From Squalus acanthias (lineage: Eukaryota), in assembly GCA_030390025.1 (NCBI GenBank), contig CM059432.1, positions 69,194,001 to 69,258,000 of the forward strand: DNA of 64,000 bases. The letters are read 5' to 3'. The notes under the pieces are model-generated. The model worked only from the letters and a program-made list of their open reading frames with translations. It searched no databases and was not told the origin of the DNA. Of the stretch, positions 7,347-64,000 are shown piece after piece (positions within the stretch are counted from its first letter, which is position 1; each line of letters begins with the position of its first letter). A program made the translations under genes and the position numbers.

Positions 7347-7469
7347 ATTGATTGATAAAGTTGGATTGGAATGTGGTGACATTTATTTCAGCATAGTGGC
7401 CAAGAGGACGCTGTGATGGTAAGTAACAGAGAGAAGGTAAGGTGTGGGACTATTGTTGATTGGGGAATT

Positions 7470-21289: not shown

Positions 21290-21716
21290 AGGTAAGGGTA
21301 TCAAGGGATATGGCACTAAGGCAGCTAAATGGAGTTGGAGTACAGATCAGCCATGATCTAATTGAGTGGCAGAACAGGCTTAAGAGGCTGAATGGCCAAC
21401 TTCTGTTCCTATGTCGGAAAAACTATTTCCACTGGTCGATGAATCAGTAACTAGAGGACAGAAATTTATGATCACCAAAAGAACAAAGGGAGAGGTTAGA
21501 TTTTTTTTTAAGTGGAGGGTTGTTAGGATATTGAATGCCCTACCAGAGACAGTGATTGAAGCAAAATCCATAATAGCTTTTAAAAGAGATGATAAATATT
21601 GCAAAAAGAAAAATTCAAAAAGCGTGCGAAAGGGGCAGGAAAATGGGAACAGATAGGATCTTTCAGAGTGCATGCACAGGCTAGATGGGCCAAAATGGCC
21701 TCCTTCTACACTCTAT
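21290..21716 (+). mobile_element. Two adjacent old CR1 3' fragments
   Basis: 21290-21413 resembles the CR1 3'UTR (GATCAGCCATGATC...GAATGGCC); 21415-21716 encodes LFPLVDESVTRG...RVVRILNALP. Confidence 0.7.
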
Positions 21717-23056
21717 GTTTGAATCCCTCCAATCAGGTTTCCGCCTCGCCACAATACCAAAACGGTTCTCAACAAAGTCACAAATCACATCCTTTGTGAC
21801 TGTGACAAAGGTAAACTATCCCTCCTCATCCTTCTCGACTTGTCTGCAGCCTTTGACACGGTTGACCACTCCATCCTCCTCCAACGCCTCTCCACCGTCA
21901 TCCAGCTGGGTGGGACTGCACTCGCCTGGTTCCATTCTTATCTATTTAATCGTAGCCAGAGAATCAGCTGCAATGGCTTCTCTTCACGCTCCCGCATCAT
22001 TACTTCTGGTGTCCCCCAAGGATCGATCCTTAGCCCATTATTTCTCATCTACATGTTGTCCCTTCGCGACATCATCCGTGAGTTTCCACATGTACACTGA
22101 CGACACCCAGCTCTACTTCTACCACACTTTTCTCGACCTCTCCACGGTATCTAAATTGTCAGACTGCTTGTCTGACATCCAGTACTGGATGAGCAGAAAT
22201 TTTCTCCAATTAAATATTGGGAAGACCGAAGCCATTGTTTTCGGTCCCTGCCACAAACTCCATTCCCTAGCCATTGACTCCATACCTCTCCCTAACACCT
22301 GTCTAAGGCTGACCCACACTGTTCGCAACCTTGGTGTCATATTTGACCCTGAAATTAGCTTCCAACCACATATCCACGGCATAACTAAGACCGCCTATTT
22401 CCACCTCCGTAACATTGCCGTCTCCACCCCCTGCCTCAGCTCATCTGCTGCTAAAACCCTCATCCATGTCTTTGTTACCTCTAGACTTGACTATTCCTGC
22501 ACACTCCTGGCTGGCTTCCCACGTTCTATCCTATGTAAACTGAGGTCATCCAAGGCTCGGCTGCCCGTGTCCTAACTCGCAGCAAGTCCTGTTCACCCAT
22601 CACCCCTGTGCTCGCTGACCTACATTGGCTCCCGGTTGAGCAATGCCTCGATTTCAAAATTTTCATCCTTGTTTTCAAAACCCTCCATGGCCTCGCCCCT
22701 CCCTCTCTCTGTAATCTCCTCAGTGCCCACAACCACCCCCCCCACCCCCCGAGATATCTGCGCTCCTCTAGTTCTGCCCTCTTGAGCATCCCGGATTATA
22801 ATCACTCAACCATTGGTGGCCGTGCTTTCTGTTGCCTAGGCCCTAAGCTCTGGTATCCCTCCATAAACCTCTCTACCTCTCTTTCCTCCTTTAAGACGCT
22901 CCTTAAAACCTACCTCATTGACCAAGCAGTTGGTCATCTGCCCTAATTTCTCCTTTTGTGGCTCGGTGTCAAATATTTGTCTTATAATACTCCTGTGAAG
23001 CGCCTTGGGATGTTTTACTACGTTAAAGGCGCTATATAAATACAAGTTGTTATTGT
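21716..23056 (+). mobile_element. L2 LINE, 5'-truncated, frameshifted RT
   Basis: LSAAFDTVDH, GVPQGSIL, YTDDTQLY, NFLQLNIGKTE and LHWLPV; tail GGCGCTATATAAATACAAGTTG. Confidence 0.92.
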
Positions 23057-23919
23057 AGTAAAATTCTATTATTCTATGATTCTGTGGAAGTGCCCAGTGG
23101 TACCTTGGACCTCATGGGCATTTTTTAAACATATCCGTAATCATTAAAATGTTTAAACAATGCAGAGGCTGCTGCTTATATTGTGTCAATATTTAAAATT
23201 CAATTGCTCAGGGAGAAACTCTGGGAGCTTTTTTCTGGGCCGCAGAATTGAACCCTAAACTCTCAGCCCAGTAGCTGCAATCTTAGGTGCATTCACACAA
23301 CATCCTTAGTTCAGAGTTAAGCAGTTCCCGCTTTGCTACAAGGCTAAAAATGATGCATAAACATGGTTGATGTTGGATCCAATCAATCTGCAGACCCAAA
23401 AGTTAAACCTAATGGTTTAAGATAAGAGCTGTAGGTCTACGGCCACTGTGTAAACACTGACTTCAGCAGTTCAGGTCCCAAAGGGCAAAGTTAAGCGGGG
23501 CTATGGAGGACAAATATCAGATCATATCATAAAATTAAAAATATTTTAATGCCACCAAAATTGATTAAACAGTTTTGTTTGCATGCATCATGATGTCACC
23601 ATGCAAAAAAAATCCAACAAAATCAGAATGGAGTTTAGAAATGCCAGTATTAGTCAGCCCTCTGAACCCAAAGCAAACTCAAGAGAACTTCACTCCGAGT
23701 TCATTTGCTGGCAGGTGAATGTGTTGTAATTGTACCCATAAATGTAGCATAAGATAATGTCAACTAGATAACTTGAAATACATATGAACAGATGTTGATA
23801 GTTTTCATTGTTGTACTCACAGAACTAAAACAAATACTCTCTAACCTCGTGATCTGGGATCCTAACAGGTAGATTCAAAAACAAGACCTCTGATATATCA
23901 CAATCCATGTTTGTAGAGC

Positions 23920-24667
23920 GGTAAGTAGTGGAGTGTCATCGAACTGGACTAGCAAACCAGAGGTTGTAAATTCAAATCCCACCATACTAAGTTGTGAAAT
24001 TAGCAAATTGTGGGCTAGCACCAGGCAAAAGAAAATGACCATGAAAGCTACTGAATTGTTGTAGAAACCCAACTGGTTCACTAATTTCTTTTGGGAGAAG
24101 AAAGTCTGTGATCCCTATTTGGTCTGGCCTAAGGTGTCAGCCTTGGTTCAGTGGTAGCATCTTGCCTTCTAAATCAGAGGGTTGTGGGTTCAAGTCCCAC
24201 CCCAGAAACTGCACTGCCAGAGGTGCCGTCTTTCAGATAAGACATTAAACCGAGGCCCTGTCTGCCATCTCAAGTGGACGTAAAAGATCCCATGACACTA
24301 TTCAAAGAAGAAGAAGAGAGCTCTCCCAGCGTCCTGGCCAATATTTATCCCGCAATCAACATCACTAAAACAGATTATCTGGTCATTATCTCATTGCTGT
24401 TTATGGGACCTTGCTGTGCATAAATTGGCTTTGTGTTTTCTACATTACAACCGTGACTACATTTCAAAAGTTCTTCATTTGTAGTAAAGCGCTTTGGGAT
24501 GTCCTGATGAAAGGCGTTATATAAATCCAAGATCTTTCTTTACATATCTGGAGTGGCCTGGCAAGCCATTCAAGAAGATGTCCAGCACCTTCTCGGCATT
24601 AATAGGAATGGACAATAAATGCAGCCTTGCTAGGGTTGCCCACACCCCCAGAACAAATAAAAAAAGA
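23920..24667 (+). mobile_element. tRNA-derived SINE sharing its head and tail with the LINE at 37058-41825, interrupted by another SINE
   Basis: Head ...ACTGGACTAG...CCAGAGG...TTCAAATCCCACCAT and body AACCCAACTGGTTCACTAAT...GGTCTGGCCTA match the reverse complement of 41510-41825. Tail TTCAAGAAG...CACCTTCTC...CAATAAATGC...CCCACA matches the reverse complement of 37070-37160. Confidence 0.7.
24133..24541 (+). mobile_element. Deu-domain SINE (SacSINE1/AmnSINE1-like) with tRNA-like head and L2-type tail
   Basis: GGTTCAAGTCCC B box; core GAGGTGCCGTCTTTC...TAAACCGAGGCCC...GGACGTAAAAGATCCCA...CCTGGCCAATATTTATCCC recognised from memory as the Deu domain; tail AAAGGCGTTATATAAAT. Confidence 0.75.
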
Positions 24668-32257: not shown

Positions 32258-32722
<465 letters not shown>

Positions 32723-33028
32723 TAGAAGCTGGACTGTGAGGTTACTTTGTCCCAAGTACCCGTCTGGAGAATATTTCGAACTGACGCATCCGTGAATAAT
32801 GTACATATGCTTCTATGTACAAAATAGTCTACCATTCCTATACAGTATAAACCTTATAAAGTATGGCAAAAAATCTACGCACTAATAAGTCAAAAGGTGT
32901 GATTCTAATAACTAAATTGAATAAAGTAATAATTGCCATATTCATGTGATTATTCTGCCCTGTTATGTGGAGTTCAAGTTTGCTCGATAATAATGTGTTT
33001 ACCGTTTACTTGTATTGTGTACCTGCAG

Positions 33029-33951
33029 GTAAATCATGGAGAGGACTCTCCTTGGCAGAAAAACGTCCCTTTGTGGAGGAGGCAGAGAGACTTCGAGTCC
33101 AGCACATGAAAGAGCATCCTAACTACAAATACCGGCCCAGGCGGAGAAAGCAGATCAAGAGAATTAAGCGGGTAGACACGGGTCTCCTGATGCACAGCAT
33201 CTCCGAGCAGCAGCTGAGCAATGAGGGGCGCGTTTGCAGCCAAAACATTAACCTAACTTACCACGACACCGGTTACTGTATCCCAAACCAGATTCCTCCG
33301 CTCAGCCACTACAGGGAAGCGCAAACCATGGCAACCAGTATGGACAGTTTCGGCTTGCCAACCCCGGAGACCTCTCCTTTGGACGTTCTGGAGGCAAATT
33401 CTATGTTTTTCCCCCCGCATTTGCAGGAAGATTGCCAAATGATGCCTTACGGGAACAGCCCTGGTTACCACCATCACCACCACCACCACCACCATCCCGA
33501 TTACTCTGCCCAGGAAAACCAGGTAGCCATGTTCCGAAGGCACAGAGCTGAGCTGGGTCTTTCCCAGGAAGATCAGATGGGACACGACGGTAATTTCCAT
33601 GGGATGCTCAGCTCTTGCCACAACGTGGTAGCAATGTACTACAGCCAGATGTGCTCGTCAAACAGCCAGCGGCCCCAGCATGTGCATGTCGGACAACTCT
33701 CTCCACCACCCGAACCGCACCATGTGGACAACCTGGAGCATCTCAGCCAGGCCGACCTTCTGACGGACGTGGATCGCAATGAGTTCGAGCAATACCTCAC
33801 GTCGGTTTCGCGATCTGATCTGGCAGGACTTCCCTATAATACACCAGAAGCAAATCCAAATGGACTGACTTCTGTAGAGAGCAATCTGATTTCCTCTGTT
33901 CTTTCCGACGCCAGTAGTGCCATGTACTACTCCAATTTCACTTCGGCATAG
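33029..33951 (+). CDS. sox17: Sox17 coding exon 2 (rest of HMG box, transactivation region, SoxF C-terminal motifs)
   Basis: Acceptor CCTGCAG| at 33028 continues [41 protein letters not shown]. Contains [24 protein letters not shown] (SoxF beta-catenin-interaction motif) and [16 protein letters not shown] at 33949-33951. Intron 32688-33028 is 341 bp; spliced CDS is 1218 nt. Confidence 0.95.
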
Positions 33952-35966: not shown

Positions 35967-38900
35967 AACACAAAATAAATGGTATAATTCCTTGTATAAT
36001 TCGTACAAATCGCGAGCTGAGCAGGAAGTTTTTGGTAAATTCTGAATGTAGTACTCTGTGTGCATTACTTCCTTACTTCAACCGCACACTGGAACAGAGT
36101 AAATTCCGTTAACAGGTCGCCTACAAGTCCCACAAGTACGCACCCTAGTACTTTAATATTCGAGGTTTACAGAGGTCAAATAAAATTATTTTGATAACAT
36201 CTCACTATTGCCCCAGTTTATTGTCTTGTCCTCATAAGGATCTGTTTCCATTTCATTTTGACTAATCTCGATTTGGCAATAAAATTCACGCTCTTCACCC
36301 GACCTAGTGGCGATGTCAACTGTACCAGGGTAGAAATCCATAAGTAAATGAGCCAAAATGCTACAATAAATCGGGAAAGTTCATTGTGCCCTTAAGGAGT
36401 CATTAACAAACAGATCCATTATGTAAGCTCGCTTTCTAGCTCTCCCTGTAACCACCGAATTAAATAAAACAAATATTTTAAATTAACTTAAAGAAACGCT
36501 GGCGTTATAAATTGTTTTTGTATTCCTCTCGATGTTAAGATTTATGGACTGAATCTTGACCTGCGCTATTGGATTATTTAACTAATTCCGTTTTTGTCCC
36601 CTGGCAGGTGTTTTCTTTTAAACATTACTCGAGTTTTTTTAGGCGCTGCGATTGAAAACTAGCCACAAGATTCCAACTGCGGTGGGAATCAGTCCAAACC
36701 CGGCCACCAGCGCGATGCTAACACTGTAAAATGGAACTCCATAACATTAACCCAGTTTTAAAATTCATTCCAAATAAGGGAGGAAAGCCATTTTAACAGA
36801 ACTAAGTTTAAAAAGACAAGCTGGCCTGGCAGGCCATCGATAGGTGTTAATACTAAATAGTAACGGCCTTATTAAGAATCTTCATTTATATTTATAGGCC
36901 AGTAATATTACACATTTTGTGTCAGTGCGATGTGGTTTTGGTTTTGGTATAAATATTTAGGGGAAAGCTAGATAAGGACAGGAGGGGAGGGGATATATTG
37001 ATAGGGTTAGATGAAGTAAGGTGGGAAAGGCTCCTGTGGAGCAGAAGCACCATCAATGTTTTTTTCTTCGTTCCTGGAATGTGGGCATCGTTGACAAGGC
37101 CAGCATTCATTGCCCATCCCTAATTGCCCTTGAGAAGGTGGTGGTGAGCCGCCTTCTTGAACCGCTGCAGTCCATGTGGTGAAGCTACTCCCACAGTGCT
37201 GTTAGGGAGGGAGTTCCAGGATTTTGGCCCAGCCCCAGCGACGATGAAGGATCGGCGATATACTTCTAAGTCAGGATGGTGTGTGACTTGGAGGGGAACT
37301 TGCTGGTGGTGGTGTTCCCATGCACCTGCTGCCCTTGCCCTTCTAGGTGGTAGAGGTTGCGGGTTTGGGAGGAGCTGTCGAAGAAGCCTTGGCGAGTTGC
37401 TGTAGTGCATCTTGTAGATGGCACACACTGCAGCCACGGTATGCCGGTGGTGGAGGGAGTGAATGTTTAAGGTGGTGGATGGGGTGCCAATCAAGCGGGC
37501 TGCTTTGTCCTGGATGGTGTTGAGCTTCTTGAGTGTTGTTGGAGCTACACTTATCCAGGCAAGTGGAGAGTATTCCATCACACTCCTGACTTGTGCCTTG
37601 TAGATGGTAGAAAGGCTTTGGGGAGTCAGGAGCTAAGATACTCATCGCAGAATACCCAGCCTCTGACATGCTCTTGTACCACAATATTTAAGTGGCTGGT
37701 ACAATTATGTTTCTGGTCAATGGTGACCCTCATGATGTTGATGGTGGGGGATTCGGCAATGGTAATGCGGTTGAATATCAAGGGGCGGTGGTTAGATGCT
37801 CTCTTGTTGGAGATAGTCATTGACTGGCACTTGTGTGGCATGAATGTTACTTGCCACTTATCAGCCCAAACTTGAATGTCTTCCAAGTCTTGCTGTATGC
37901 GTGTATGCACTGCTTCATTATCTGAGGAGTTGCAAATGGAACCGAATACTGTGCAATCATCACCGAACATCCCCACTTCCGAACTTATGATGGAGAGAAG
38001 GTCATTGATGAAGCAGCTGAAGATTGTTGGGCCTTGGACACTGCCCTGAGGAAATACCGCAGCGATGTCCTGGGGCTGAGATGATAGGCCTCCAACAACT
38101 GCAAACATCTTCCTTTGTGCTAGGTATGACTCGGAGAGGTTTCCCCTGGTTTCCATTGACTTCAATTTTACTTGGGCTCCTTGATGCCACACTTGGTCAA
38201 ATGCTGCCTTGATGTCAAGGGCAGTCACTCTCACCTCACCTCTAGAATTCAGCCTTTTTGCCCATGTTTGTACCAAGGCTGTAATTAGGTCTGGAGCCGA
38301 GTGGTCCTGGTGGAACCTAAACTGAGTGTCGATGAGGTTATTGGTGAGTAAGTGGCACTTGATAGCAGTGTCAAAGACACCTTCCATCACTTTGCTGATT
38401 ATTGAGAGTACACTGATGGGGCGATAATTGGCCAGATTGGATTTGTCCTGCTTTTTGTGGACAGGACATACTTGGGCAATTTTCCACATTGTCAGGTAGA
38501 TGACAGTGTTGTAGCTGTACTGGAGCAGCTTGGCTAGAGGCGCGGCTAGTTCTGGAGCACAAGTCTTCAGCATGACAGCCGGGATGTTGTCGGGCCCATA
38601 GCCTTTGCTGTATCTAATGCGCTCAGCCATTTCTTGATATCACGTGGAGCGAATTGAATTGGCTGAAGACTGGCTTCTGTGATGGTGGGGACCTCAGGAA
38701 GAAGCCAAAATGGATCATCCACTCAGCACTTCTGGATGAAGATGGTTGCAAACGCTTCAGCCTTGTCTTTTGCACTTGCGTGCTGGGCTCCGCCATCATC
38801 GAGGATGGGATATTTATGGAGCCTCTTCCTCCCGTTAGTTGTTTAATTGTCCACCACCATTGACAATTGGATGTGGTAGGACTGCAGGGCTTTGATCTGA

Positions 38901-39852
38901 TCCATTGGTTTGGTGATCGCATAGCTCTATCTATAGCATGCTGCTTCCACTGGTTAGCATGCATGTAGTCCTGTGTTGTAGCTTCCCCAGGTTGATACCT
39001 TATTTTTAGGTACACCTGGTGCTGCTCCTGGTATGCTCTTCTGCACTCCTTATTGAACCAGGGTTGGCCCCCTGGTTTGATGGTAATGGTAGAGTGAGGG
39101 ATATGCCAGGCCATGAGGTTACAGATTATGGTGGAATACATTCCTGCTGCTGATGGCCCACAGCGCCTCATGGATGCCCAGTTTTGAGCTGCTAGATCTG
39201 TTCTGAATCTATCCCATTTAGCATGGTGATAGTGACACACAACACTTTGTCCCCACAAGGACTGTGCGGTGATCACTGCTACCAGTACTGTCATGGACAG
39301 ATACATCTGTAGATTGGTGAGGATAAGGTCAAGTAGGTTTTTCCCTCATGCTGGTTCTCTCACCACCTGCTGCAGGCCCATCTGGCAGCTATGTCCTTCA
39401 GGACTTGGCCAGCTCTGTCAGTAGTGGTGCTACCATGCCACTCTTGGTGATGGACATTGAAGTCTCCCACCCTGAGTACATTCTGTGCCCTTGCTACCCT
39501 CAGTGCTTCTTCCAAGTATTGTTCAACATGGAGAAGTACTGATTCATCAGCTGAGGGATGGCGGTAAGTGGTAATTAGCAGGAGGTTTCCTTGCCCATAC
39601 TTGACCTGAAGCTATGAGATATCATGGAGTCTGGAGTCAATGTTGAGGACTCCCGGGGCTACTCCCTCATGACTGTATACCACTGTGCCACCACCTCTGG
39701 TGGGTCTGTCCTGCCGGTGGGACAGGACACACCCAGGGATGGTGTTGGGACATTGGCTAAAAGGTATGATTCTGTGAGTATGACTATGTCAGGCTGTTGC
39801 TTGACTAGTCTGTGGCACAGCTCTCCCAATTTTGGCACAAGTCCCCAGATGT

Positions 39853-41246
39853 CCCCTGACATCGGTGGTGGGTAAAATGATGGAATCAATTATTAAAGAT
39901 GTCATAACAGACCATTTGGAAAGTGGTGACATGATAGGTCCAAGTCAGCATGGATTTGTGAAAGGGAAATCATGCTTGACAAATCTTCTGGAATTTTTTG
40001 AGGATGTTTCCAATAGGGTGGATGGGGGGGAACCGGTAGATGTGGTGTATTTGGACTTTCAGAAGGCCTTCGACAAGGTCCCACACAAGAGATTGGTGTG
40101 CAAAGTTAAAGCACATGGGATTGGGGGTAATGTGTTGACGTGGATTGAGAACTGGTTGGCACACAGGAAACAAAGAGTAGGAGTAAATGGGTACTTTTCA
40201 GAATGGCAGGCAGTGACCAGCGGGGTACCGCAGGGTTCGGTGCTGGGGCTCCAGCTGTTTACATTATATATTAATGATTTGGGCGAAGGGATTAATTGTA
40301 ATATCTCCAAATTTGCGGATGACACTAAATTGGGAGGCAGTGTGAACAATGAGGAGGATGCTAGGAGGCTACAGAGTGACTTGGACAGGTTGGGTGAATG
40401 GGCAAATGTATGGCAGATGAAGTACAATGTGGATAAATGTGAGGTTATCCACTTTGGTGGTAAAAATAGGGAGGCAGACTATTACCTGAATGGTGGCAGA
40501 TTAGGGAAAGGGGAAGTGCAACGAGACCTGGGCGTCATGGTACATCAGTCACTGAAGGTGGGAAGGCAAGTGCAACAGGCAGTCAAGAAAGCAAATGGCA
40601 TGATGGCCTTCATAGCAAGGGGATTTGAGTACAGGAGTAGGGAGGTGATGCTACAGTTGTACAGGGCCTTGGTGAGGCCACACCTGGAGTATTGTGTGCA
40701 GTTTTGGTCTCCTAACTTGAGGAAGGACATTTTTGCTATTGAGGGAGTGCAACGAAGGTTCACTAGATTGATTCCTGGGATGGCCAGACTGACATATCAA
40801 GAAAGACTGGATCAACTGAACTTGTATCCTCTGGAGTTCAGAAGAATGAGGGGGAATCTTATAGAGACGTTTAAAATCCTGACTGGTTTAGACAAATTAG
40901 ATGCGGGCAGAATGTTTCCAATGTTAGGGAAAACTAAAACCAGGGGTCACAGTCTAAGGATAAAGGGGAAGCCATTTAAGACTGAGATGAGGAGGAACTT
41001 CTTCACCCAGAGAGTGGTGAATCTGTGGAATTCTCTACCACAGAAGGTTGTTGAGGCCAGTTCGCTAAATATATTCAAAAGGGAGTTAGATATAATACTC
41101 ACAACTAGGGGGATCAAGGGGTATGGCGAGAAAGCAGGAATGGGGTACTGAGGTAGCATGTTCAGCCATGAATGCATTAAATGGCGGTGCAGGCTCGAAG
41201 GACCGAATGGTCTACTCTTGCACCTATTTTCTATGTCTATGTTTCT
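39853..41246 (+). mobile_element. Young 5'-truncated CR1 inserted in the tRNA-headed LINE
   Basis: Open RT/C-terminal frame to 41151 (FADD, EYCVQFWSP); (TTTCTATG)-like tail; ATGT at both junctions (39849-52 and 41247-50). Confidence 0.92.
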
Positions 41247-41265
41247 ATGTTAGTGAGGAGGACTT

Positions 41266-41379
41266 TAGAAAACATAAGTAGATCATTCGGCCCTGCTCCG
41301 CCATTCAACATGATCATGGCTGATCCTCTATCTCAATACCATATTCCCGCTCTCTCCCCATACCCCTTTTGTGTCTATC
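41266..41379 (-). mobile_element. Short CR1 3' fragment with TSD GACTT
   Basis: Reverse complement of the CR1 3'UTR at 16200-16330; GACTT at 41261-65 and 41380-84. Confidence 0.75.
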
Positions 41380-42504
41380 GACTTGCAGGTTCGACTGGGC
41401 TGGGTGTGTCATTGTCATGTCAGAAGCTGTTGCCTAGGTCGATGCCGTGTGGTCTGTCCAGTTTTATTCTTATAATTGTTTTTCGTAGCAGTCTTGATAC
41501 AACTGAGTGGCTTGCTAGGTCATTTCAGAGGGCAGTTAAGAGTCAACCACATTGCTGTGGGTCTGGAGTCATATATAGGCCAGAATAGGTAAGGATGGCA
41601 GATTTTCTTCCCAAAAGGTCATTAGTGAACCAGATGGGTTTTTACAACAATCCAGTAGTTTCATTGTTACTATTACTGACACTAGATTTTTATTCCAAAT
41701 TTATTTAAGTAACTGAATTTAAATTCCCCAGCTGCCATGGTGGCATTTGAACACACATCTCTGGATCATTAGGTCCAGGCCTCTGGATTACTAGACCAGT
41801 AACTTAACCACTATGCTACCATACCTGTGGTGCACTTGTTGGGCCAAATGGGATGTTTCTGTGTTGTAAATTCTATGTAATTCTATGAGTCAAATTTGCT
41901 TTGGGTGCATTTCGATACAGCAGCAGTGTATAATTCAAGTTTGGCATTCTGAATCCTAAACACACTGAACTGAGAATTCTGAGACATCTTTTAGTATGGA
42001 GTAAAGGATGCTTTTACATTCTAAAGTTGGGGTGTAAACGCAGAATCAGCCCAATACCTGTAACTAATTCCCCAGCAGTTGGTGATTTTACTCTGGAGTG
42101 CACATCATTTTCATTGGTGCAAACCATGCCTTGGGCAGTTAGGGCTCCCCAGCTTCTATTTCCCACCATGGGAATAAAAAGTGTCCTGAGATTAGTGCCT
42201 TCACTACCAGTTTACACAATCTATTGGACAAAATAAACATAAATTTGGATTATAATTATGGAGTGACATTGTCAACAAAATCAAACAACAATGCAGATAG
42301 GCTCAAATAACACACTGCTTGGTAACTGTTTTAGCTGGGGCTCTGCCATTAGCTCTCACAACTATCCAAACTGTTGAGATATCACTTCAGCATTTCCCAG
42401 TCCTCTGCATTCATTAAATCACAGCCTTTCTGAGCGACTGCAAGTCAGCGCTCCAGAATCACGGAGAACTCAAGAGCAATTCACTGTCAGATTGCTTTGT
42501 GCAG

Positions 42505-44300: not shown

Positions 44301-44454
44301 AATGTGTAACTTTTTAAAAGTTAGCAACTGTCCAACTGCCCTGCTGGCTTTTTCCTAACATTAACAGTTAACCAACACTGGATGTTAGTGAGCAGCGCTT
44401 TGTGAATGAATATAAACACCAATGAACAGTCTTCTGTTTTCCCCAGCCAGAAAA

Positions 44455-45955
44455 TCTTCTTCTTAGGCAGTCCCTCGGAACCGAGGATGAATTGCTTCCA
44501 CAATAAAAATGAGTTCTCAGGTGACCGATGAGTCCAATACGGGACCTACAATCTCTGTCACAGGTGGGGCAGACGGTGGTTGAAGGGGCGGGTGGGTGGG
44601 GTGCTTGGGTTGACATGCGCTCCTTGCGCTGTTTGCGCTTGGCTTCCGCTTGCTCTCGGCGAAGAGACTCGAGGTATTCGGCGCCTTCCCGGATGCTTCT
44701 CCTCCACTTTGTACGGTCTTGAGCCAGGGATTCCCAGGTGTCGGTGGGGATATTGCACTTTTTCAAGGAGGCTTTGAGGGTGTCCTTGAAGCGTTTCCTC
44801 TGCCCACCTGGGGCTCTTTTGCCGTGTCGGAGCTCCGAGTAGAGCGCTTTTTCTGGGAGTCTCGTATCGAGCATGCGGATGATGTGACCCGTCCATCGGA
44901 GCTGATCGAGCGTGGTCAGAGCTTCGATGCTGGGGATGTTGAAGGTGAAGGTGTTGACAATGGTTTGGAGTTCGACCTCTGAGTGTGCACAGACGCAAGT
45001 GTCGTCTGCATACTGTAATTTGATGACAGAGGATGGGACAACCTTGGATCTGGACTGGAGGCGACAGAGGTTGTACAGTTTCCCCTTTGTTCTGTAGATT
45101 AGCTCCACTCCAGCGGGGAGCTTACTGAAGGTGAGATGGAGCATTGCAGCAAGGAAGATCGAGAAGAGCTTTGAGGTGATGACACAGTCTTGCTTGACCC
45201 TGGTCCGTATGTGAATTGGGTCTGTGGTGGATCCGTTGGTCAGGATCACAGCTTGCATGTCGTCGTGAAGCAGGCGGAGGATGGTGACAAACTTTTGAGG
45301 GCAGCCGAATTTGAGGAGGACACTCCATAATCGCTCACAGTTGACAGTGTCGAAGGCCTTTGTGAGGTCAAAGAAGGCCATGTACAGCGGTTGGTGCTGT
45401 TTCCTGCATTTCTCTTGTAATTGACGCACGGTGAAGATCATGTCCATTGTGCCCCTCAGTGGGCGGAATTCGCATTGCGACTCTGGGAGGAGCTCTTCAG
45501 CCACTGGGAGAAGGCGATTGAGGAGGATTCTTGCGATGACTTTCCCTGTAGCAGACAGCAGGGAAACGCTTCTTTAATTACCGCAATCAGACTTGTCACC
45601 TTTCTTGAAGATGGGCACGATTACGGCATCTCTGAGATCTCCTGGCATGCTCTCCTCCTTCCAAATAAGAGAAATGAGTTTGTGTATTCGTGCCACTAGT
45701 GCTTCTCCGCCATGCTTTAGTGCCTCGGCGGGGATTCCGTCTGCTCCTGAGGCCTTGTTGTTCTTCAGTTGTCAGATGGCCTTTTCAACCTCATGCCGGG
45801 CTGGGGTTGTGCTGAGGTGGTGGCGGGTAGCATGCTGCGGGATGGAGTTGAGGACACTCGTGCCGAAGACAGAGTCTCGGTTAAGGAGATCTTCAAAGTG
45901 CTCCTTCCAGCGGGCACTGACTGCCTCTCTGTCCTTGATGAGTACCTCTCCGTTC
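44455..45955 (-). mobile_element. RTE-clade LINE, 5'-truncated with an internal deletion
   Basis: LPESQCEFRP.RGT.DMIF..RQLQEKC, FFDLTKAFDTV, LQYADD, QLRWTGH and a C-terminal CPTC...HLRTH finger; (AAG)n tail. Confidence 0.9.
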
Positions 45956-47122: not shown

Positions 47123-48995
47123 ATGGCAGATCAACGCCCCAGGGAGAGAGCCCGCAGATTCAGCGATCAAGCATTGGAGGCATTGGTGTTCACTGTGGAG
47201 AGACGGAGGGCGGTGCTCTGCAAGTCTTTGGCACCATGTAGAGGGAGGTAGCGCAGCACGTCTTGGGCAGCACTGTGGTCCTCAGGGCCCACACTCAGTG
47301 CAGGAAGAAATTTAATGACCTTACTCAGGGGGTCAGGGTGATTCAATGCTTCAACAAATGCTACATACCACCGTCTGAACCATAGTCGTCACACACTGCC
47401 CAAAGCACCAGGCCCCCAGCACTCACCCACCAACAATCTCTACCTACCAACACTCACACCCACATCTCACACCTTGCACACAATGACAGCTATTCAACTA
47501 TGGCAGGCGCATCACCCAACCACATTGCTCCACACTCACTCACACACTTTCCTTTCTCTTTGCAGGCCAAGGTGGCTCACAACAGGAGGAGCAGGAGCGC
47601 ACAGGCGAGGGACAAGCCGACACCGAACCATTGTCTGAGCTGGAGAATCGAGTGCTGCAGATTATTGGACGCCAGGTGGTGGGCGCCATGACCACCGGCG
47701 ATGTTGACCCCCTTGGGGACAACAACGGTATGTTCAGCCCTACTCCTTCTTCTCACATCCCACTTCCCCCTCACCCCACAAGCCTTTCGCACTTTCCAGC
47801 TAATCATGCTGTATGCATGCATTTCTCCCTTCCTGCCCCCCTCCCCTCACCTTAACCCGACTCTTGTGCCTTTATGTTTTCAGATAATCAGCAAGTATCT
47901 GAGCAGCCTGTCCCTGAGGGCACCGCAGAGAGTGAGGCAGAAGAAGAGGAGGAGGAGGAGGAGGAGGAAGAAGACACCTTGTCACTGCATGTCTCACTCG
48001 CAGGCACCAGCTCAGATACTGGCACTATGCATTCTTTAGAGGCTAGTATAGTAGCAGGATCTGCACAGGGTGAGTCACCGGGGACGAGTGGGCTGCAGCA
48101 AGGCCAGGGGGAAAGGGTAGCTCGGGTGCCAGCTCCCTGGAGGGCGAGTTCGCGCGCGAGTTCTGCTGCACAGGACTCAGATGAGGACCTCGATGGGGAG
48201 GCCTTTAGAAGAAGGGTGATGGACATGCACACAGAGACGATAGGTGCAATGGCAAGGGTGCCTGAGAGCCTCTCGGCAATGATTGAAGCGTGGAGGGGTC
48301 CACCTCCAACATTGCACAAGGCTCTGTGCACATCATGGAGCCCATCATTTCCAATCTCCAGAGAGACCGTGGTGTCCCAGACCTGATGCCGTGTAGGATG
48401 AGCAATCTGGCAGCTTCCATTGCAGCACAGGCGGAAGCGATGCAACGTGTTAGTGCTGTAATGCAGCCTATGCTTGGTGGCATCCAATCTCAGGCCGCTC
48501 TCATGCAGTCTCAGCTTGATGCCACGCAAGCTCTGACTGCTGCCATCGTGGCTGTGTCTACCACCGCTGACCGGGGCTTTCACGGTGTCGCAACAGGCCC
48601 GCAATCTGTGCTCCAACAGATTGCTAGGGATGCTAAGGTGTTGCCCTGGGGGAGTGGCAGTAGGTCAGTGGAGCAGGAACCTGTTGTCATCTCTCAGGAT
48701 GACAGCATTCCTGCTCCCACCACAGGCCACTCCACCATTGCCCTTGTCGCTGCCTGTCATCCAGCCAGCCCAGACTGCTGCCGCCCATGCTGAGGTGGTG
48801 CAGTCTACAGCTGGGCCTTCCAGGCCCAGAGCTGGTCAAGGGCGTCCTGCAAGGCCATCTGAAGTCTCCTGCACAGACACTCAGCAGCCTTCCACCAGCC
48901 CTGCTGCAGCCACTGGGCCAACACTTTCTAGGAGTACTAGAGTAGGCAAAGGCACAGTAACGACAGGCAATAAGGGATTGCACAAGGGTGAATAG
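47123..48995 (+). pseudogene. Harbinger Myb/SANT-like gene, exons 47123-47337, 47566-47727, 47884-48995
   Basis: MADQRPRERARRFSDQALEALV..VERRR..L, QCRKKFNDL and AKVAHNRR; GT/AG sites at the stated boundaries; poly-Glu tract; frameshifts. Confidence 0.8.
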
Positions 48996-49160: not shown

Positions 49161-50343
49161 TTATTGGAACCGCAGTCTGCTGAGGCGTTCACGGACCACC
49201 CTTCCGGAAGGCCAATTGAGTGGCTGCCTCCTCCCTCGCTCCTGTTCCTCCTCCTCCTCCTTGTCATCCTCCTCATCTTCCTCCTCCACCTCCTCCCCCT
49301 CTTCCTCCTCCTGAGGTGGTCCCGTAAGCCGTGCAGGCAAGGGCTGGGCCCTCATGATGGCCAAGTTGTGGAGCATGCAGCAGACGATGACGAAATGGGA
49401 CACCTGCTCAGCCAAGTACTGGAGGGCTCCTCCTGAGCGATCAATGTAGCGGAACCATTGCTTCAGCAGGCCGATGGTCTGCTTGATGATGTTCCTGGTG
49501 GCAGCATGGCTCTCATTATATGAGTCCTGGGCAGGAGTGTTGGGGTTGCGGGGGGGAGTCATGCGCCAGGTGGAGATCAGATAGCCCTTGTCTCCGAGCA
49601 GCCAGCCGCGAGCTTGATGTGGTGGCTGGAAGAGTGCTGGCACACCTGGTGCAGGATAAGGCATCGTGGCTGCTGCCAGGATAACAGGCATTCACATTGA
49701 GGATTCGCTGTCTTTGGTCGCACACTAACTTCACATTAAGTGAGTGGTAGCCTTTGCGGTTATGGAAGATCTCAGGATTGTTATGCAGTGCCCGCAAAGC
49801 CATGTGGGTGCAGTCAATGGCGCCCTGCACCATGGGGAATCCCGCTATCCTGGCAAAGCCACATGCACGCTCGTCCTGCTTCTCTCTGGTGATGGGGAAG
49901 GAAATGTAGTCCCTTCTCCTACTGCAGAGAGCCTCTGTGACCTCCTGGATGTAGCGATGGACGGCGAACTGCAAAATGTTAGCTATGTCTCCTGTTGCAG
50001 ACTGGAAGGATCCGCTGGTGAAGAAATTGAGGGGGACAGTGCACTTGACTGCCACTGAGAGAGCCGTGGTTGTCCTGATCTGAGGCTGGAGGTCTGGTTG
50101 CAGGAGGTGGCAGAGTTCTGTGACCATCTCCTTGGTGAAATGGAGCCTTCTAATACATTGCTCCTCGCTTAATTGGAGGTAGGAGAAGTGCTCTCGGAAT
50201 ACCCTCGGAGGGTAATGCCTCCTGTTGAGAGCCCTGATGACCCTCCTCTTCCCTCTGGGCACATGTTCCACTCTTTCTCACTGCCTCTGCTCCCTTCACC
50301 GTAGGTCCTGGAGGGCCACGTCGACTGCCAGTACAGCCCCCAT
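49161..50343 (-). pseudogene. Harbinger HARBI1-like transposase
   Basis: YPPRVFR, LSEEQCIRRL, LNFFTSGSFQ, GFPMVQGAIDCTH, NRKGYHSLNV, PGSSHDA, WLLGDKGY, YNESHAATRNII and CCMLHN; frameshift at ~49660. Confidence 0.9.
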
Positions 50344-50857: not shown

Positions 50858-51720
50858 GCTTTTCTTTATTCATTCAAGGAATGTGGGCATCGCTGCCAAG
50901 GCCAGCGTTTATTACCCATGCATAATTGCCCTTGAAAAGGTGGTGGTGAGCTGCCTTCTTGAACTGATGCAGTCCGTGTGGTGAAGGTACTCCCATAGTG
51001 CTGTTAGGGAGCAAGTTCTAGGATTTTGACCCAGCGATGATGAAGGAGCAGCAATATATTGCCAAGTCAGGATGGTGTGTGACTTGGAGTGGAACTTAAA
51101 GGTAATGGTGTTCCAAAGCACCTGCTGCCCTTGTCCTTCTAGGTGGTAGAGTTCACGGGTTTGGGAGGTGCGGTTGAAGAAGCCTTGGCGAGTTGCTGCA
51201 GTGCATCTTGTAGATGGTACACACTGCAGACACGGTGTGAATGTGGTGGAGGGACTGAATGTTTAAGGCGGTGGATGGGGTGCCAATCAAGCGGGCTGCT
51301 TTGTCCTGGATGCTGCCGAGTTTCTTGAGTGTTGTGGGAGCTGCACTCATTCAGGCAAATGGAGAGTATTCCATCACACTCCTGACTTGTGCCTTATAGA
51401 TGGTGGGAAAAGCTTTGGGGAGTCAGGAGGTGAAACACTCGCTGCAGAATAGCCAGCCTCTGACCTGCTCTTGTAGCCACAGTATTTATATGGCTGGTAC
51501 GGTTAAGTTTCTGGTAAATGCTGACCCCAGAATGTTGATGGTGGGAGATTCGACGATGGTGATCCCGTTGAATGTCAAGGGCCGGTGGTTAGACTCTCTT
51601 TTGTCGGAGATAGTCATTACCTGGCACTTGTGTGGCGTGAATATTACTTGCCACTTATCAGCCCAAGTCTGAATGTCCTTCAGCTCTTGTTGCACGTGGG
51701 TATGGACTGCTACATTATTA
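50858..51720 (-). mobile_element. 3' fragment of the same CR1-group LINE family as 37058-41825
   Basis: Clearly alignable to 37060-37920 (WADKWQV.F.PHKCQ, IQDKAARLIG). Confidence 0.88.
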
Positions 51721-54854: not shown

Positions 54855-57107
54855 CTACTTTTGTGTCACTTTTCTTTTGCGAGTATTTCTACAAGGTGCA
54901 CCCCCTGTGGTTTCAGCAGAGGTAGAGGCAGGCTGCTCACTTCCCTGCTGCGACTGCGTAGACACTTTTGGCGGACGTCCTCTGGGTTTTGGAGCCTGTG
55001 ATGGCCCCAACAAAGTCTGCTCCTCCTGCAACTGTGCAGGGGCAGACTCGGCCATCTTGATCTGAGGAAGCATGTGGGTCTCTGACTGAGGGGGAGGCAA
55101 CGGGGGAGAAGTGGGAACGCTTTGAGAAGAGCCCCCACTTCCATGTCCCCTCTCACCATCATCCTTCTCATGGGCCACCCGCACTTCCCTGCTAGTAAGG
55201 AGCTGGAGAGCACTTTGTTGCACAGCATTGGGGCGATGAAGGTCCAAGTCAACGTTTACATCCTTCCTTGAGAAGAGGTCGATGAGCGTTTGCCATCTGT
55301 TGTCCACAGCTAGCATGTGCTCATGTGACTGGAGCATTTGCTGCTCCGTGCAGGTGGCCATCCCTTCCATGGAACAACACATCATCGCCATCACCTGCGA
55401 CATGTTGGTGCTCATGTTGGAGCTGGACTCCTCCATTCTCTGAACATTTGCAGACATTACGGCTGCAAAAGATGTCAGAGCCTCACGCAATTGTTGCTGC
55501 CCCTCCAAGATCACCCTCTTTTCAATGGCCCTCGAGGCTCAGCGTCTGCATGCAGCTCGGCAGAGCTTGGAGCATCCTGTACCCTCGGCGAGGAGTCTCC
55601 ACTGCTGTCCCTGTCTCCACCATCTGCTCTTGCTCACTTGTGATTTGTGAGACACCAGGTGACAACACTACTCTATGGCACAAAGGACCCACCGAGGTGC
55701 GCATATCTGCACTGGTGCTGGCTGCACTTGGGTCTGCTGACACTGCACACTCAGAGTCATAGAGTCATAGAGTCATAGAGTTATACAGCACAGAAAGAGG
55801 CCCTTCGGCCCATCGTGTCCGCGCCGACCATCAAGACCTGTCTATTTTAATCCCATTTTCCAGCACTTGGTCCGTAGCCTTGTATGCTATGGCGTTTCAA
55901 GTGCTCATCTTGAATGTTGTGAGGGTTCCTGCCTCTACTACCCTTTCAGGTAGTGAGTTCCAGATTCCAACCACCCTCTGGGTGAAGAAGTTTTTCCTCA
56001 AATCCCCTCTAAACCTCCTGCCCCTTACCTTGAAACTATGCCCCCTGGTTATTGACCCCTCTACTAAGGGGAAAAGTTCCTTTCTATCTACCCTATCTAT
56101 GCCCCACATAATTTTGTACACCTCAATCAGGTCCCCCCTCAGCCTTCTATGCTCTGCAGAGGCTGGAGGTTCCATTGAGGAGTTGTCTTCCTCCTCTGGC
56201 TGGACAGTGGCGGTGGGAGAGTAAAGAGATGAATTAGAAGTGTTTTAATAAGAATGGGTGGCGTTACCATTATGCACATGATGTCATTTCACTGGCTGCT
56301 GACATCAGTCACCATATGGGTGACTGTTGTATGCCATGTGGCTCTATGAGATGTGATTCTGTCACCAGGTTGCTGGGATTTGCCATTCTCTCCGTCTCCC
56401 ACCGCCAGCATCTCTCGAGCTCCCACAATTTCCAGAGCCGGCTCCTCTGCTGCTGTAAGATGTGCAATTACTGGAGAGCCACCTCTGGTTCTCTCCCTCT
56501 TTCTGTTGTTGTGGGCTCTCTTCTCCTGCAAGGAGGGAAAGAAGAGAAGTTTGAGTGAGAGTAATGGAATGAGTGTAAGGAATGGATGGGTTACATCTGT
56601 AGAGGGTGACTGAGGGAGTGGGGTGCCAATGCCAAATGGCCTCCTTCTGTGGTGTTGCTTGCTATGATTGCATTAGGATGAGGGTGAGTGTCAGGGGTGG
56701 TTAGTCAGATAGGGATGTGAGTATGTACATAGAGAGAGAGGGATGGGTGGACGTGCAAGGTATGTTGGTGTGAGGAATGATGTGCAGGAGTAGGCTTGGG
56801 AAGGCAGAGTGATGGGGATGTGTTGTCAGGCACATCAAGATGAAGGTGAGTGTGGCATTGCAATCACCTTTCCTGACCTCATGAGATCACTGAAGCGTTT
56901 CCTGCACTGGATCCAGGCCCTCCTCACCACATCCCTGCTGCTGACCTCCTCAGTTATATCCAGCCAGGCTGTTTTTGTTTCTTGTGGAGGTCTCCTTTGC
57001 CTATCAGCAGGGAAGAGGACCTCCCTGCCTGCTCTGACTGCCTCCACCAGAGTATGCAGTGATAAGTCTGAGAAGCATGGTGCAGCCCTCTGCTTTTGGC
57101 TATCCAT
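54855..57107 (-). pseudogene. Harbinger Myb/SANT-like gene (exon 1 57107-56868, exon 2 56525-56366, exon 3 split by CR1)
   Basis: MDSQKQRAAPCFSDLSLHTLVEAV...AWLDITEEVSS...QCRKRFSDLMRSGK|GT; AG|EKRAHNNR; basic C-terminal end RNTRKRKV. Confidence 0.8.
55753..56153 (-). mobile_element. CR1 3' fragment inserted in Myb exon 3
   Basis: (TCATAGAG)n tail; RRLRGDLIEVYKIM...FFTQRVVGIWNSLP. Confidence 0.88.
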
Positions 57108-57480
57108 CCTTGCAAATTTATAAGAATACTGTGGCCTTTGTTTGTCAGGTTCCACCCTCCTCTAGCAACCTTCAAATGAGTTGAGTGCAAGGCTGCTTTA
57201 AATATCGGCGCTGGAAATGAGTCATCGATGACGTCATCATCAACTCCACGGCGTGTGTGCTTTTTTTTCAACAGGATCCCTGCTCGCAAGTTGGCCTGAT
57301 TGACAGGTTTGGTTGTTGGCTCCCTGTTGAGCAGAGGCCGCAGCCCAGGAACAGGTAGGTTTCCTGCCGCTGGGGTAGAGATCACGAGGGGAAGCGTGGG
57401 TACAGAGTATTTGGAGGATCGGGATGATCGCGGTGGGTCGGAGACAAATCGGGGCAGTGATGGGGGGCGTTGTGGGGGGG

Positions 57481-58390
57481 CCGGTGATGATGGGGAGGGG
57501 GGCGGTGATGGTAGGGAGGGGGCCGGTGATGGTGGGGAGGGGGCCGGTGATGGTGGGGAGGGGGCCGGTGATGGTGGGGAGGGGGCCGGTGATGGTAGGG
57601 AGGGGGCCGGTGATGGTGGGGAGGGGGCCAGTGATGGTGGGGAGGGGGCCGGTGATGGTGGGGAGGGGGCCGGTGATGGTGGGGAGGGGGCCGGTGATGG
57701 TGGGGAGGGGGGCAGTGATGGTGGGGAGGGGGCCGGTGATGGTGGGGAGGGGGCGGTGATGATGGGGAGGGGGCCAGTGATGATGGGGAGGGGACCGGTG
57801 ATTGTGTGGAGTTGGGCGGTGATGGTGGGGAGGGGGGGGGGTGGTGATGATGGGGAGGGGGCCGGTGATGATGGGGAGGGGACCGGTGATGGTGGGGAGG
57901 GGGGCGGTGATGGTGGGGAGGGGGGCGGTGATGGTGGGGAGGGGGCCGGTGATGGTGGGGAGGGGGGGGGGCGGTGATGATGGGGAGGGGGCCGGTGATG
58001 ATGGGGAGGGGGCCGGTGATGATGGGGAGGGGGCCGGTGATGATGGGGAGGGGGCCGGTGATGGTGGGGAGGGGCGGTGATGATGGGGAGGGGGGCGGTG
58101 ATGGTGGGGAGGGGGGCGGTGATGGTGGGGAGGGGGGCGGTGATGGTGGGGAGGGGGGCGGTGATGGTGGGGAGGGGGGCGGTGATGGTGGGGAGGGGGG
58201 GCGGTGATGGTGGGGAGGGGGGCGGTGATGGTGGGGAGGGGGCTGGTGATGGTGGGGAGGGGGGCGGTGATGATGGGGAGGGGACCGGTGATGGTGGGGA
58301 GGGGACCGGTGATGGTGGGGAGGGGGGCGGTGATGATGGGGAGGGGACCGGTGATGGTGGGGAGTGGGGGCGGTGATGGTGGGGACGGGG
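57481..58390 (+). repeat. G-rich minisatellite, ~21-bp unit GGTGATGGTGGGGAGGGGGCC and variants, roughly 40 copies
   Basis: Tandem array directly visible, with GAT/GGT and G-run length variants. Confidence 0.95.
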
Positions 58391-62185: not shown

Positions 62186-64000
62186 ATCATTTATGGGATC
62201 AGGGCGTCGCTGGCAATGCCAGCATTTATTGCTCATCCCTAGTTGCCCTTGAGAAGGTGGTGGTGAGCCGCCTTCTTGAACCGCTGCAGTCCGTGTGGTG
62301 AAGCTACTCCCACAGTGCTGTTAGGTAGGGAGTTCCAGGATTTTGACCCAGCGACGATGAAGGATCGGCGATATACTTCTAAGTCAGGATGGTGTGTGAC
62401 TTGGAGGGAAACTTGGAGGTGGTGGTGTTCCCATGCGCCTGCTGCCCTTGTCCTTCTAGGTGGAAGAGATCGCGGGTTTGGGAGGTGCTGCCGAAGAAGC
62501 CTTGGCGAGTTGCTGCAGTGCATCTTGTAGATGGTACACACTGCGGACACGGTACGCCGGTGGTGGAGGGAGTGAATGTTTAAGGTGGTGGATGGGGTGC
62601 CAATCAAGCGGGCTGCTTTGTCCTGGATGGTGTCGAGCTTCTTGAGTGTTGTTGGAGCTGCACTCATCCAGGCAAGTGGAGAGTATTCCATCACACTCCT
62701 TACTTGTGCCTTGTAGATGGTGAAAAGGCTTTGGGGAGTCAGGAGGTGAGACACTCAGGGCAGAATACCCAGCCTCTGACCTGCTCTTGTTGCCACACTA
62801 TTTATGTGGCTGGCCCAGTTAAGTTTCTGGTTAATGGTGACCCCCAGGATGTTGATAGTGGGGGATTCGGCGATGGTAATGCCGTTGAATGTGAAAGGGA
62901 GGTGGTTAGACTCTCGCTTGTTGGAGATAGTCATTGCCTGGCACTTCTGTGGCGCGAATGTTACCTGCCACTTATGAGCCCAAGTCTGAACATCGTCCAG
63001 GTCTTGTTGCATGCAGGCATGGACTGCTTCATTATCTGTGGAGTTGCGAATGGCGCTGAACACTGTGCAGTCATCAGCGAACATCCCCATTTCTGACCTT
63101 ATGTTGGAGGGAAGGTCATTGATGAAGCAGCTGAAAATGGTTGGGCCTAGGACACTGCCCTGAGGAACTCCTGCAGCGATGTCCTGGGGCTGTGATGATT
63201 GACTTTCAACCACCACAACCATCTTCCTTTGTGTTAGGTATGACTCCAGCCAGTGGAGCGTTTTCCCCTTGCTTCCCATTGACTTCAGTTTTACTAGGCC
63301 TCCTTGATGCCAGACTCAGTCAAATGCTGCCTTGATGTCAAGGGCAATCACTCTCACCTCACCTCTGGAATTCAGCTCCTTTGTCCATGTTTGGACCAAG
63401 GCTGTAATGAGGTCGGGAGCCAAGTGGTCTTGGCGGAACCCAAACTGGGCATCAGTGAGCATGTTATTGGCGAGTAAGTGCCACTGGATAGCACTGTCGA
63501 TGACACCTTCCATCACTTTGCTGATGATTGAGAGTAGGCTGATGGGGCGGTAATTGGCCGAGTTGGATTTGTCCTGCTTTTTGTGGGCAGGACATACCTG
63601 GGCAGTTTTCCACATTGTCGGATAGATGCCAGTGTTGTAGCTGTACTGAAACAGCTTGGCTAGAGGTGCGGCTAGTTCTGGAGCACAAGTCTTCAGCACG
63701 ATAGCCGGGATGTTGTAGGGGCCCATAGCCTTTGCTGTATCCAGTGCGCTCAGCCGTTTCTTGATATCACGTGGAGTGAATCGAATTGACTGAAAACTGG
63801 CATCTGTGATGGTGGGGACCTCGGGAGGAGGCCGATATGAATCATCCACTCGGCACTTCTGGCTGAAGATGGTTGCAAACGCTTCAGCCTTGTCTTTTGC
63901 ACTCATGTGCTGGGCTCCACCATCATTGAGGATGGGGATATTCTTGGAGCCTCCTCCTCCCGTTAGTTGTTTAATGGTCCACCACCATTCACGACTGGAT
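62186..64000 (-). mobile_element. Less-decayed copy of the tRNA-headed CR1-group LINE family, running off the window end
   Basis: KTCAPELAAPLAKLFQYSY, YRPISLLS, LDIKAAFD, GVPQGSVLGP and FADD; alignable to 37060-38875. Confidence 0.92.

Follow-up and report, generated by a model that had tools for sequence, protein, structure and literature searches.

A tRNA-like head opens the Zenon LINEs of sharks and rays and may serve as their Pol III promoter

Retroelements are usually sorted by a working rule according to which long interspersed nuclear elements (LINEs) are transcribed by RNA polymerase II (Pol II), capped and translated, while short interspersed nuclear elements (SINEs) depend on RNA polymerase III (Pol III) for their transcription and remain non-coding (PMC5786205, PMC2666806). 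The closest described system to the element reported here is the elasmobranch Zenon family, published with consensus sequences as LINEs of ~3.25 kb with a single APE-reverse transcriptase (RT) frame, no ORF1 and a poly-A tail (Stuart et al. 2026, PMC13343379); absence of ORF1 and presence of poly-A are given there for all Zenons, and CR1-Zenon has also been noted in the whale shark (10.1101/443036). The family, its single open reading frame (ORF) and its tail are therefore already known, which answers the question, left by an earlier note made from the letters alone, of whether the element was catalogued. Its tRNA-like 5' head is present in the supplement and undescribed in the main text, where the terms tRNA, pol III and head do not occur (PMC13343379). 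We analyzed a copy of this element in a 64,000-nucleotide (nt) stretch of the Squalus acanthias genome (GCA_030390025.1, contig CM059432.1, positions 69,194,001 to 69,258,000), hereafter the window. The focal element, at 37059-41825 on the minus strand, is a decayed copy of an abundant elasmobranch Zenon LINE, and its head looks like a Pol III promoter. The new observations are promoter boxes that appear to be kept without an acceptor stem, a 5' end at the position expected of Pol III, B-box words restricted to the family among about 1,000 CR1-group entries and an APE frame apparently devoid of an in-frame AUG. The open-access full texts covered by our search yielded no tRNA-headed or Pol III-made autonomous LINE.

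When the two later CR1 inserts are removed, the element measures 446 + 14 + 2791 = 3,251 nt, in agreement with the ~3.25 kb of the earlier note, and the inserts are flanked by duplications of 4-5 nt. We hold the order head, body, leader, APE, RT and poly-A with high confidence. The parts of the element, and its two other copies in the window, are as follows.

37059..41825, minus strand: Zenon LINE copy, with its parts in the order head, body, leader, APE, RT, poly-A
41733..41825, minus strand: tRNA-like head, a sequence that opens 7/7 elasmobranch Zenon consensus sequences
41818-41808 and 41752-41742, minus strand: A box and B box, respectively, within the tRNA-like head
41799-41783 and 41778-41761, minus strand: anticodon-arm-like hairpin and, at the variable-arm position, an extra hairpin, both in the head
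41497..41732, minus strand: non-coding body, common to a short SINE-like partner (81% over 94 nt to the SINE at 24038-24131)
41523-41515, minus strand: two-codon ATG-x-TAG frame that closes the body
41380..41496, minus strand: leader found in the LINE only, with an A-rich spacer and then an Arg-rich, ATG-less stretch in the APE frame
41266..41379, minus strand: 3' fragment of a CR1, a later insert with duplication AAGTC (96% over 83 nt to 16202-16284)
41247..41265, minus strand: short piece of the element between the inserts, holding the first codons of the APE domain, with the same letters found inside the contig joint 39852-41383
39853..41246, plus strand: 3' part of a CR1, a later insert in reverse orientation with duplication ACAT (78% to 14942-16329)
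37120..39852, minus strand: single APE-RT frame, broken by stops and at least 5 frameshifts, with its stop at 37122-37120
37059..37119, minus strand: 3' untranslated region (UTR) and A7 tail, common to the SINE-like partner (72% over 86 nt to 24582-24665)
50861..51700, minus strand: copy 2 of the Zenon LINE, 5'-truncated, 86.5% to the focal copy
62187..64000, minus strand: copy 3 of the Zenon LINE, which the end of the window truncates; 88.9% to the focal copy

Both boxes that the earlier note had placed at the 5' end were located, and the APE N-I-W motif begins at nt 456 of the rejoined element, which bears out the short leader and the lack of room for an ORF1. Pfam recognized Exo_endo_phos_2 (E 9e-7) and RVT_1 (E 2e-28) in the focal copy. 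A tblastn search with the full-length relative P0001 recovered six frame segments running from 39856 to 37135, hence at least five frameshifts in what was one APE-RT frame. The A7 tail lies at 37065-37059; copy 2 ends in an A-rich tail, and copy 3 carries a run of about 10 T (62186-62176, minus strand) instead of poly-A.

One APE-RT ORF, no ORF1 and a poly-A tail are the marks of a Zenon, and over its first 400 nt the focal copy is clearly alike by eye to the published consensus set, whose members share >84% among themselves. In an RT tree (FastTree, 160 of 199 RT rows, with 39 rows among P0081-P0120 omitted, rooted on the RTE copy of the window), the focal copy and copy 3 were sisters (support 1.0). 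These two window Zenon copies grouped with invertebrate single-ORF proteins (0.89 with the insect set that includes P0038 of the butterfly Euphydryas) and stood apart from the window CR1s, a placement that the earlier note had proposed to check; the CR1 insert at 39853-41246 fell with canonical CR1. The tree holds no labeled Zenon, and P0038 is probably one, as its N-terminus matches that of Zenon-1_Hmel by eye. Canonical CR1 was rejected as an identity for the focal element, which has a separate RT clade, no room for an ORF1 and poly-A instead of a short tandem-repeat tail. SINE2 was rejected as well: the focal element does carry 5' A and B boxes at tRNA-like spacing, but at 3.25 kb with an APE-RT frame it is not short and non-coding.

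Contigs or reads from 4 of 24 sequencing runs were aligned on the region at 80% likeness, and 15 of the 4,314 contig joints were listed. The joint 39852-41383, which skips both CR1 inserts, occurs in 10 X1, 14 X6, 1 X15 and 0 X21 records (X15 consists of contigs whose RNA origin is a guess, X21 of raw reads from another organism), and 120 loose ends of X1 contigs at 39852 continue as leader. Furthermore, a 1-nt deletion at 41493 recurs in 46 X1, 60 X6 and 4 X15 contigs, so that the boundary between body and leader is bridged; continuity of body and leader is seen in >100 contigs. Run X21 was uninformative, as its 252 reads gave no joints and none lay on the head or the APE start. The supplement of PMC13343379 holds seven elasmobranch Zenon consensus sequences from five species, one of them a ray. 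Over their first 400 nt, all seven start by eye with head, body and leader, and none of three consensus sequences from hagfish (two) and coelacanth (one) starts with the head. SquAca_Zenon-1 is the closest match to the focal copy by eye, extra hairpin included. The five main elasmobranch entries are 3.24-3.31 kb long and share the same 5' boundary (PMC13343379). These observations support the view that head and ORF probably form one family-wide unit and that their join is not a local accident. The earlier note had argued that they inserted together and had asked whether other full-length forms share the 5' end; contig joints and consensus heads both agree.

The surroundings of the focal copy bear on the same point. 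It lies between two halves of a CR1 end.

41826..41890, plus strand: right half of the host CR1 end, with a short tandem tail, matching 7/7 CR1 ends in the window
36945..37057, plus strand: left half of the host CR1 end, a weak match when taken alone (3/7 CR1 ends at P<0.05)

The right half matched all seven CR1 ends of the window (P<=0.007), and the rejoined site, with the 4 nt at 41826-41829 omitted, was collinear over the junction in all seven (P<=0.003). Of the earlier note's single interrupted CR1 3' UTR, the right half and the rejoined site are thus well borne out, and the left half by itself only in three of seven comparisons. A target-site duplication (TSD) outside the head, which the note had proposed to look for, did not appear: the longest candidate flanking the Zenon copy is 3 nt, so there is no real TSD. 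One could suppose that the headed LINE is not a replicating unit, the locus being a SINE-LINE recombinant and the published heads artifacts of 5' extension into SINE copies. LINE and SINE do have the body in common, which invites both recombination and chimeric extension, the focal copy has no TSD to mark one insertion, and no contig among those listed spans head to APE. However, the focal genomic copy is physically continuous inside one split CR1 end, its head matches that of SquAca_Zenon-1 by eye down to the extra hairpin, five species have the same 5' boundary with lengths of 3.24-3.31 kb in the five main entries, and body and leader are continuous in the >100 contigs mentioned above. We regard such a chimera as very improbable.

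The head of the focal copy is only weakly tRNA-like. Searched with a strict A+B pattern, the window yielded 0 pairs (mean of 0.005 in shuffled sequence), because the focal B box carries G at the last invariant C. A relaxed pattern, run without a shuffle control, found two pairs, at 41818 and 24144. With the Rfam tRNA model, the focal head scored 12.4 bits over its 5' half only and the head of the short partner 23.2 bits, for a gathering score of 29, and ARAGORN found 0 tRNA genes. Neither head (fold z 0.26) nor body (z -1.0) folds better than shuffles, and Rfam over 41200-42000 returned a chance match to a long non-coding RNA alone, with no known internal ribosome entry site or ribozyme family. 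From these scores, the tRNA likeness of the head appears weak.

The boxes themselves appear in a different light across the family (fits, spacings and pairing in the consensus heads were judged by eye over the first 400 nt). An A box conforming to the standard pattern is present in 7/7 elasmobranch Zenon consensus sequences, with changes confined to degenerate positions, and a conforming B box in 6/7; the stretch separating the two boxes is variable both in sequence and in length (~43-55 nt). Six common B-box words were found in only six elasmobranch Zenon rows when the first 400 nt were searched in a table of 1,004 rows with about 1,000 CR1-group entries. Counted from the 5' end, the A box begins at about +6 to +11 in the consensus sequences and at +8 in the focal copy, and in tRNA genes it lies at a similar short distance. 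Since a LINE copy shows by its 5' end where its template RNA began, the template here would have started at a Pol III start position. We infer that this coincidence is the best evidence for a promoter role, and the head boxes resemble a type-2 Pol III promoter that has been kept.

The same sharp 5' end, on an uncapped RNA, would also result if the head acted as RNA, a tRNA mimic cut by RNase P to free the 5' end from a read-through Pol II transcript, much as self-cleaving ribozymes do in other LINE clades. The anticodon-arm-like and variable-arm hairpins are kept, as such a role would favor. RNase P, however, recognizes the acceptor stem and T arm, and these pair poorly in the focal head (Rfam match over the 5' half only, fold z 0.26). 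In the consensus sequences the acceptor stem is not kept either, their 5' ends being unpaired by eye with the strand after the T arm. As the boxes are kept and the cloverleaf is lost, a DNA promoter fits better than a tRNA mimic, and we consider cleavage by RNase P improbable.

The extra hairpin of the head was also considered as a duplicated anticodon arm, which holds for the SquAca-type head only, as the hairpin of other species differs. Heads were sought on invertebrate relatives, where ARAGORN found 0 genes in the 38 scanned of 80 loci and cmscan gave no tRNA match in 7 loci; among 46 related loci there was one weak A+B pair (L028). Many of these contigs may lack 5' ends.

Pol III terminates at runs of four or more T, which makes the T content of the sense strand relevant to a promoter role. 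T5 is absent from the body of all three window copies, as the earlier note had stated; 0.3-0.8 are expected per copy, and the probability of observing so few is 0.44-0.88 per copy, within chance. Nor do T4 counts stand out against base, dinucleotide and codon shuffles (P 0.12-0.94). None of the six body T4 runs in the alignable region is common to copies, again as stated earlier, although one site bears two of them, differently placed; the T4 at 39762-59 of the focal copy lies outside the region comparable with another copy. Columns where two copies agree hold 4 T3+ runs, as raw counts, versus 14-21 for other bases, and no T4. The leader T4 at 41616-13 does recur in the SINE (24089), as had been noticed. 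At this site, however, the seven consensus sequences read T3 (six) or T2 (one), indicating that T4 is not ancestral there, and no T4 exists in the first 400 nt of any of them. By comparison, 46/46 related LINE frames from metagenome contigs, the longest matches among 80 loci, hold both T4 and T5 runs. The sequence would thus allow Pol III to read through, and selection for T scarcity is not implied.

The APE frame runs back through the Arg-rich stretch without an ATG, toward the ATG-x-TAG frame at the end of the body; the stops within this stretch of the focal copy are decay. HypSab_Zenon-1, the sole intact-looking consensus visible through to APE, has the same AUG-less APE frame by eye, and the conserved ATG that follows its A-rich spacer is one base out of that frame. 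The spacer is 36 nt long in three species and, allowing for the 41493 deletion, in the focal family, and 35, 32 and 28 nt long in three other consensus entries. Owing to these differing lengths, read-through from the short upstream frame cannot be general. The APE frame therefore seems to be without an in-frame AUG, and its translation would have to rely on a non-AUG start, on read-through or on a -1 shift. A full-length Zenon-family protein was not found among the best 150 matches, which held fragments of 56-83% identity only, and a 2A motif, as reported in some ORF1-less LINEs (PMC3894237), was not visible by eye in the leader frames. Translation without an in-frame AUG fits an uncapped RNA, yet it occurs in Pol II LINEs too. 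How non-LTR ORFs are initiated is described as an open question (PMC3894237).

Alternatively, the Pol III head could serve the short derivatives only, the coding RNA being a Pol II product with a promoter in the head or body, or arising by host read-through, and the head being retained by shared ancestry and SINE exchange. LINEs are ascribed to Pol II (PMC5786205), the scarcity of T runs lacks significance, short forms are plentiful as donors (body depth in X1 is ~4.6x leader depth, depth being a rough guide), and scanning could reach the conserved ATG after the A-rich spacer. That ATG, however, is out of the APE frame in the HypSab consensus, and the focal leader holds 12 ATGs. Moreover, 7/7 consensus sequences start at the tRNA +1 position, and the LINE head carries an extra hairpin that is missing in the window SINE, hence a history of its own. 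We consider Pol II transcription of the coding RNA possible but on the whole doubtful.

The reading that we prefer is that the head is the Pol III promoter of the LINE itself, that the RNA is translated independently of a cap and that the protein reverse-transcribes whatever RNA bears the shared tail; judged from sequence, this stands at about an even chance. TFIIIC would bind the A and B boxes, and Pol III would start a few bases upstream of the A box, at the start of the element, and continue along the T-poor sense strand as far as the tail. Translation of this uncapped RNA is predicted to proceed without scanning from a cap, through a non-AUG start, read-through of the upstream stop or a -1 shift from the conserved out-of-frame AUG. 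The protein would then bind the shared 3' tail and copy the full RNA and its short derivatives by target-primed reverse transcription. That Pol III transcripts can retrotranspose with ORF2p alone has been reported (PMC2666806).

Several points weigh against a Pol III-made LINE. The T-run scarcity is within chance for the base composition, the RTE copy of the window is equally T-poor (T 0.204), and the 46 control frames, which derive from other hosts, all have a higher T content (0.228-0.355). The T4 comparison covers the first 400 nt of each consensus, and T4 in the published ORFs is possible. The start-codon reading consists of a by-eye translation of the HypSab consensus together with a broken focal copy. 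As said, the listed contigs include none from head to APE, and a consensus that is extended automatically at its 5' side can stray into SINE copies, which are abundant. Transcripts made by Pol III carry no cap and generally are not translated (PMC2666806). Headless Zenons also lack ORF1 (PMC13343379), so that its absence from headed and headless Zenons alike says nothing on Pol III. The earlier note had counted both the T-run scarcity and the missing ORF1 in favor of Pol III. The former loses its force under base, dinucleotide and codon shuffles, and the latter is a trait of all Zenons, headed or headless (PMC13343379); what survives of its promoter reading is the resemblance of the boxes to a kept type-2 promoter, now family-wide.

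The short partner extends the argument to the origin of SINEs.

23919..24665, plus strand: short partner with tRNA head, body, Zenon tail and no ORF; a second SINE is nested at ~24132-24520

Its tRNA-like head spans 23919-23990 in the Rfam match. Like a SIDE, the short partner has the same two ends as the LINE, and it was rejected as a Persaeus-type SIDE without a Pol III promoter because of this head. At least seven joints from 37122-37215 to 41494-41536 represent short forms that link body to tail at differing points, and these many breakpoints favor repeated deletion from the headed LINE. The window SINE is more tRNA-like and lacks the extra hairpin carried by the LINE head, as would be expected if the LINE had captured head and body from an older SINE. 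Taken to its full extent, our reading would describe an autonomous vertebrate LINE older than the shark-ray split, made by Pol III end to end from a captured tRNA promoter, translated from an uncapped, AUG-less RNA and giving rise to SINEs by repeated internal deletion, the long and short forms being one Pol III unit. This wider proposal is tentative, and we give it somewhat less than an even chance. The SINE nested at 24132-24520 (plus strand) is itself tRNA-headed (A+B pair at 24144, Rfam tRNA 14.8 bits), and we presume it to be of the Deu-domain SacSINE1 type.

Other features of the window were noted. A canonical CR1 ORF2 at 4666-7449 (minus strand), used as a control and tree member, is open for 927 codons from stop to stop, and is therefore a young copy. 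The T-run controls also included LINE copies at 44368-45800 (minus strand) and 21685-22946 (plus strand), which we take to be RTE-type and L2-type, respectively. A two-exon HMG-box gene at 32258-33951 (plus strand) is presumably a SoxF member (Sox7/17/18), and frames at 7718-8227 and 49161-50277 (minus strand) resemble a Harbinger-type transposase. Near these lie frames of unassigned kind (3269-4413, 47487-48995, 54855-55538 and 60968-61480), and a long GC-skewed tandem repeat at 56954-58539 holds Pro/His-rich open frames in all phases. Beyond the window, protein matches of 56-83% identity lie in shark gene models, and models with ordinary names (P0039, P0053, P0059, P0093 and P0121) contain APE or RT pieces of the element, by annotation carry-over or exonization.

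A protein-coding LINE made by Pol III would, if true, be very unusual. A high-copy family that combines a SINE promoter with a LINE ORF over sharks and rays is a direct test of the Pol II/Pol III rule, and it raises the question of how a 3-kb Pol III RNA gets translated. Birth of SINEs by deletion of a headed LINE would reverse the usual model, in which a head is added to a deleted LINE. For annotation, the library used will decide whether the same 330 nt are masked as a SINE or as a LINE.

Among known systems, the HE1-HER1 pair of cartilaginous fishes consists of a tRNA-headed SINE that has only its tail in common with the partner LINE. Some BovB copies reportedly carry SINE sequence at their ends, as lineage-specific additions to an RTE element and with no Pol III claim. 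SacSINE1 and CmiSINE are likewise tRNA-headed SINEs of cartilaginous fishes, but what they have in common with their partner LINE is a tail of L2 or CR1 alone, and neither head nor body (PMC5499810). In Lepidoptera, Zenon and Persaeus also pair a single-ORF Zenon with short elements sharing both of its ends (PMC6740152). Persaeus, however, is devoid of both tRNA homology and a Pol III promoter, unlike the shark short partner with its tRNA-like head, and lepidopteran Zenon 5' ends are unrelated to the shark head, Zenon-1_Hmel having an annotated ATG start (PMC6740152). The longest of these 5' ends, those of Zenon.Lsi and Zenon-1_Hmel, share a short conserved hairpin motif (PMC6740152 supplement). 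If this hairpin were a ribozyme, Zenons would swap their 5' module. We assume a resemblance of the motif to the self-cleaving ribozymes of other LINEs. Elasmobranch Zenon-1 of CarCar, HypSab, RhiTyp and ScyCan and SquAca Zenon-1/2/3 (PMC13343379) are structurally the same family as the focal copy, which differs from them in being broken and interrupted and in nothing structural. Finally, Bov-tA, AfroSINE and SINE2-1_ACar also combine a tRNA head with 5' and 3' LINE parts (PMC5786205). In these bipartite SINEs the head was added solely to the form with the internal deletion, its partner LINE being headless (PMC5786205), whereas in sharks the coding LINE is itself headed.

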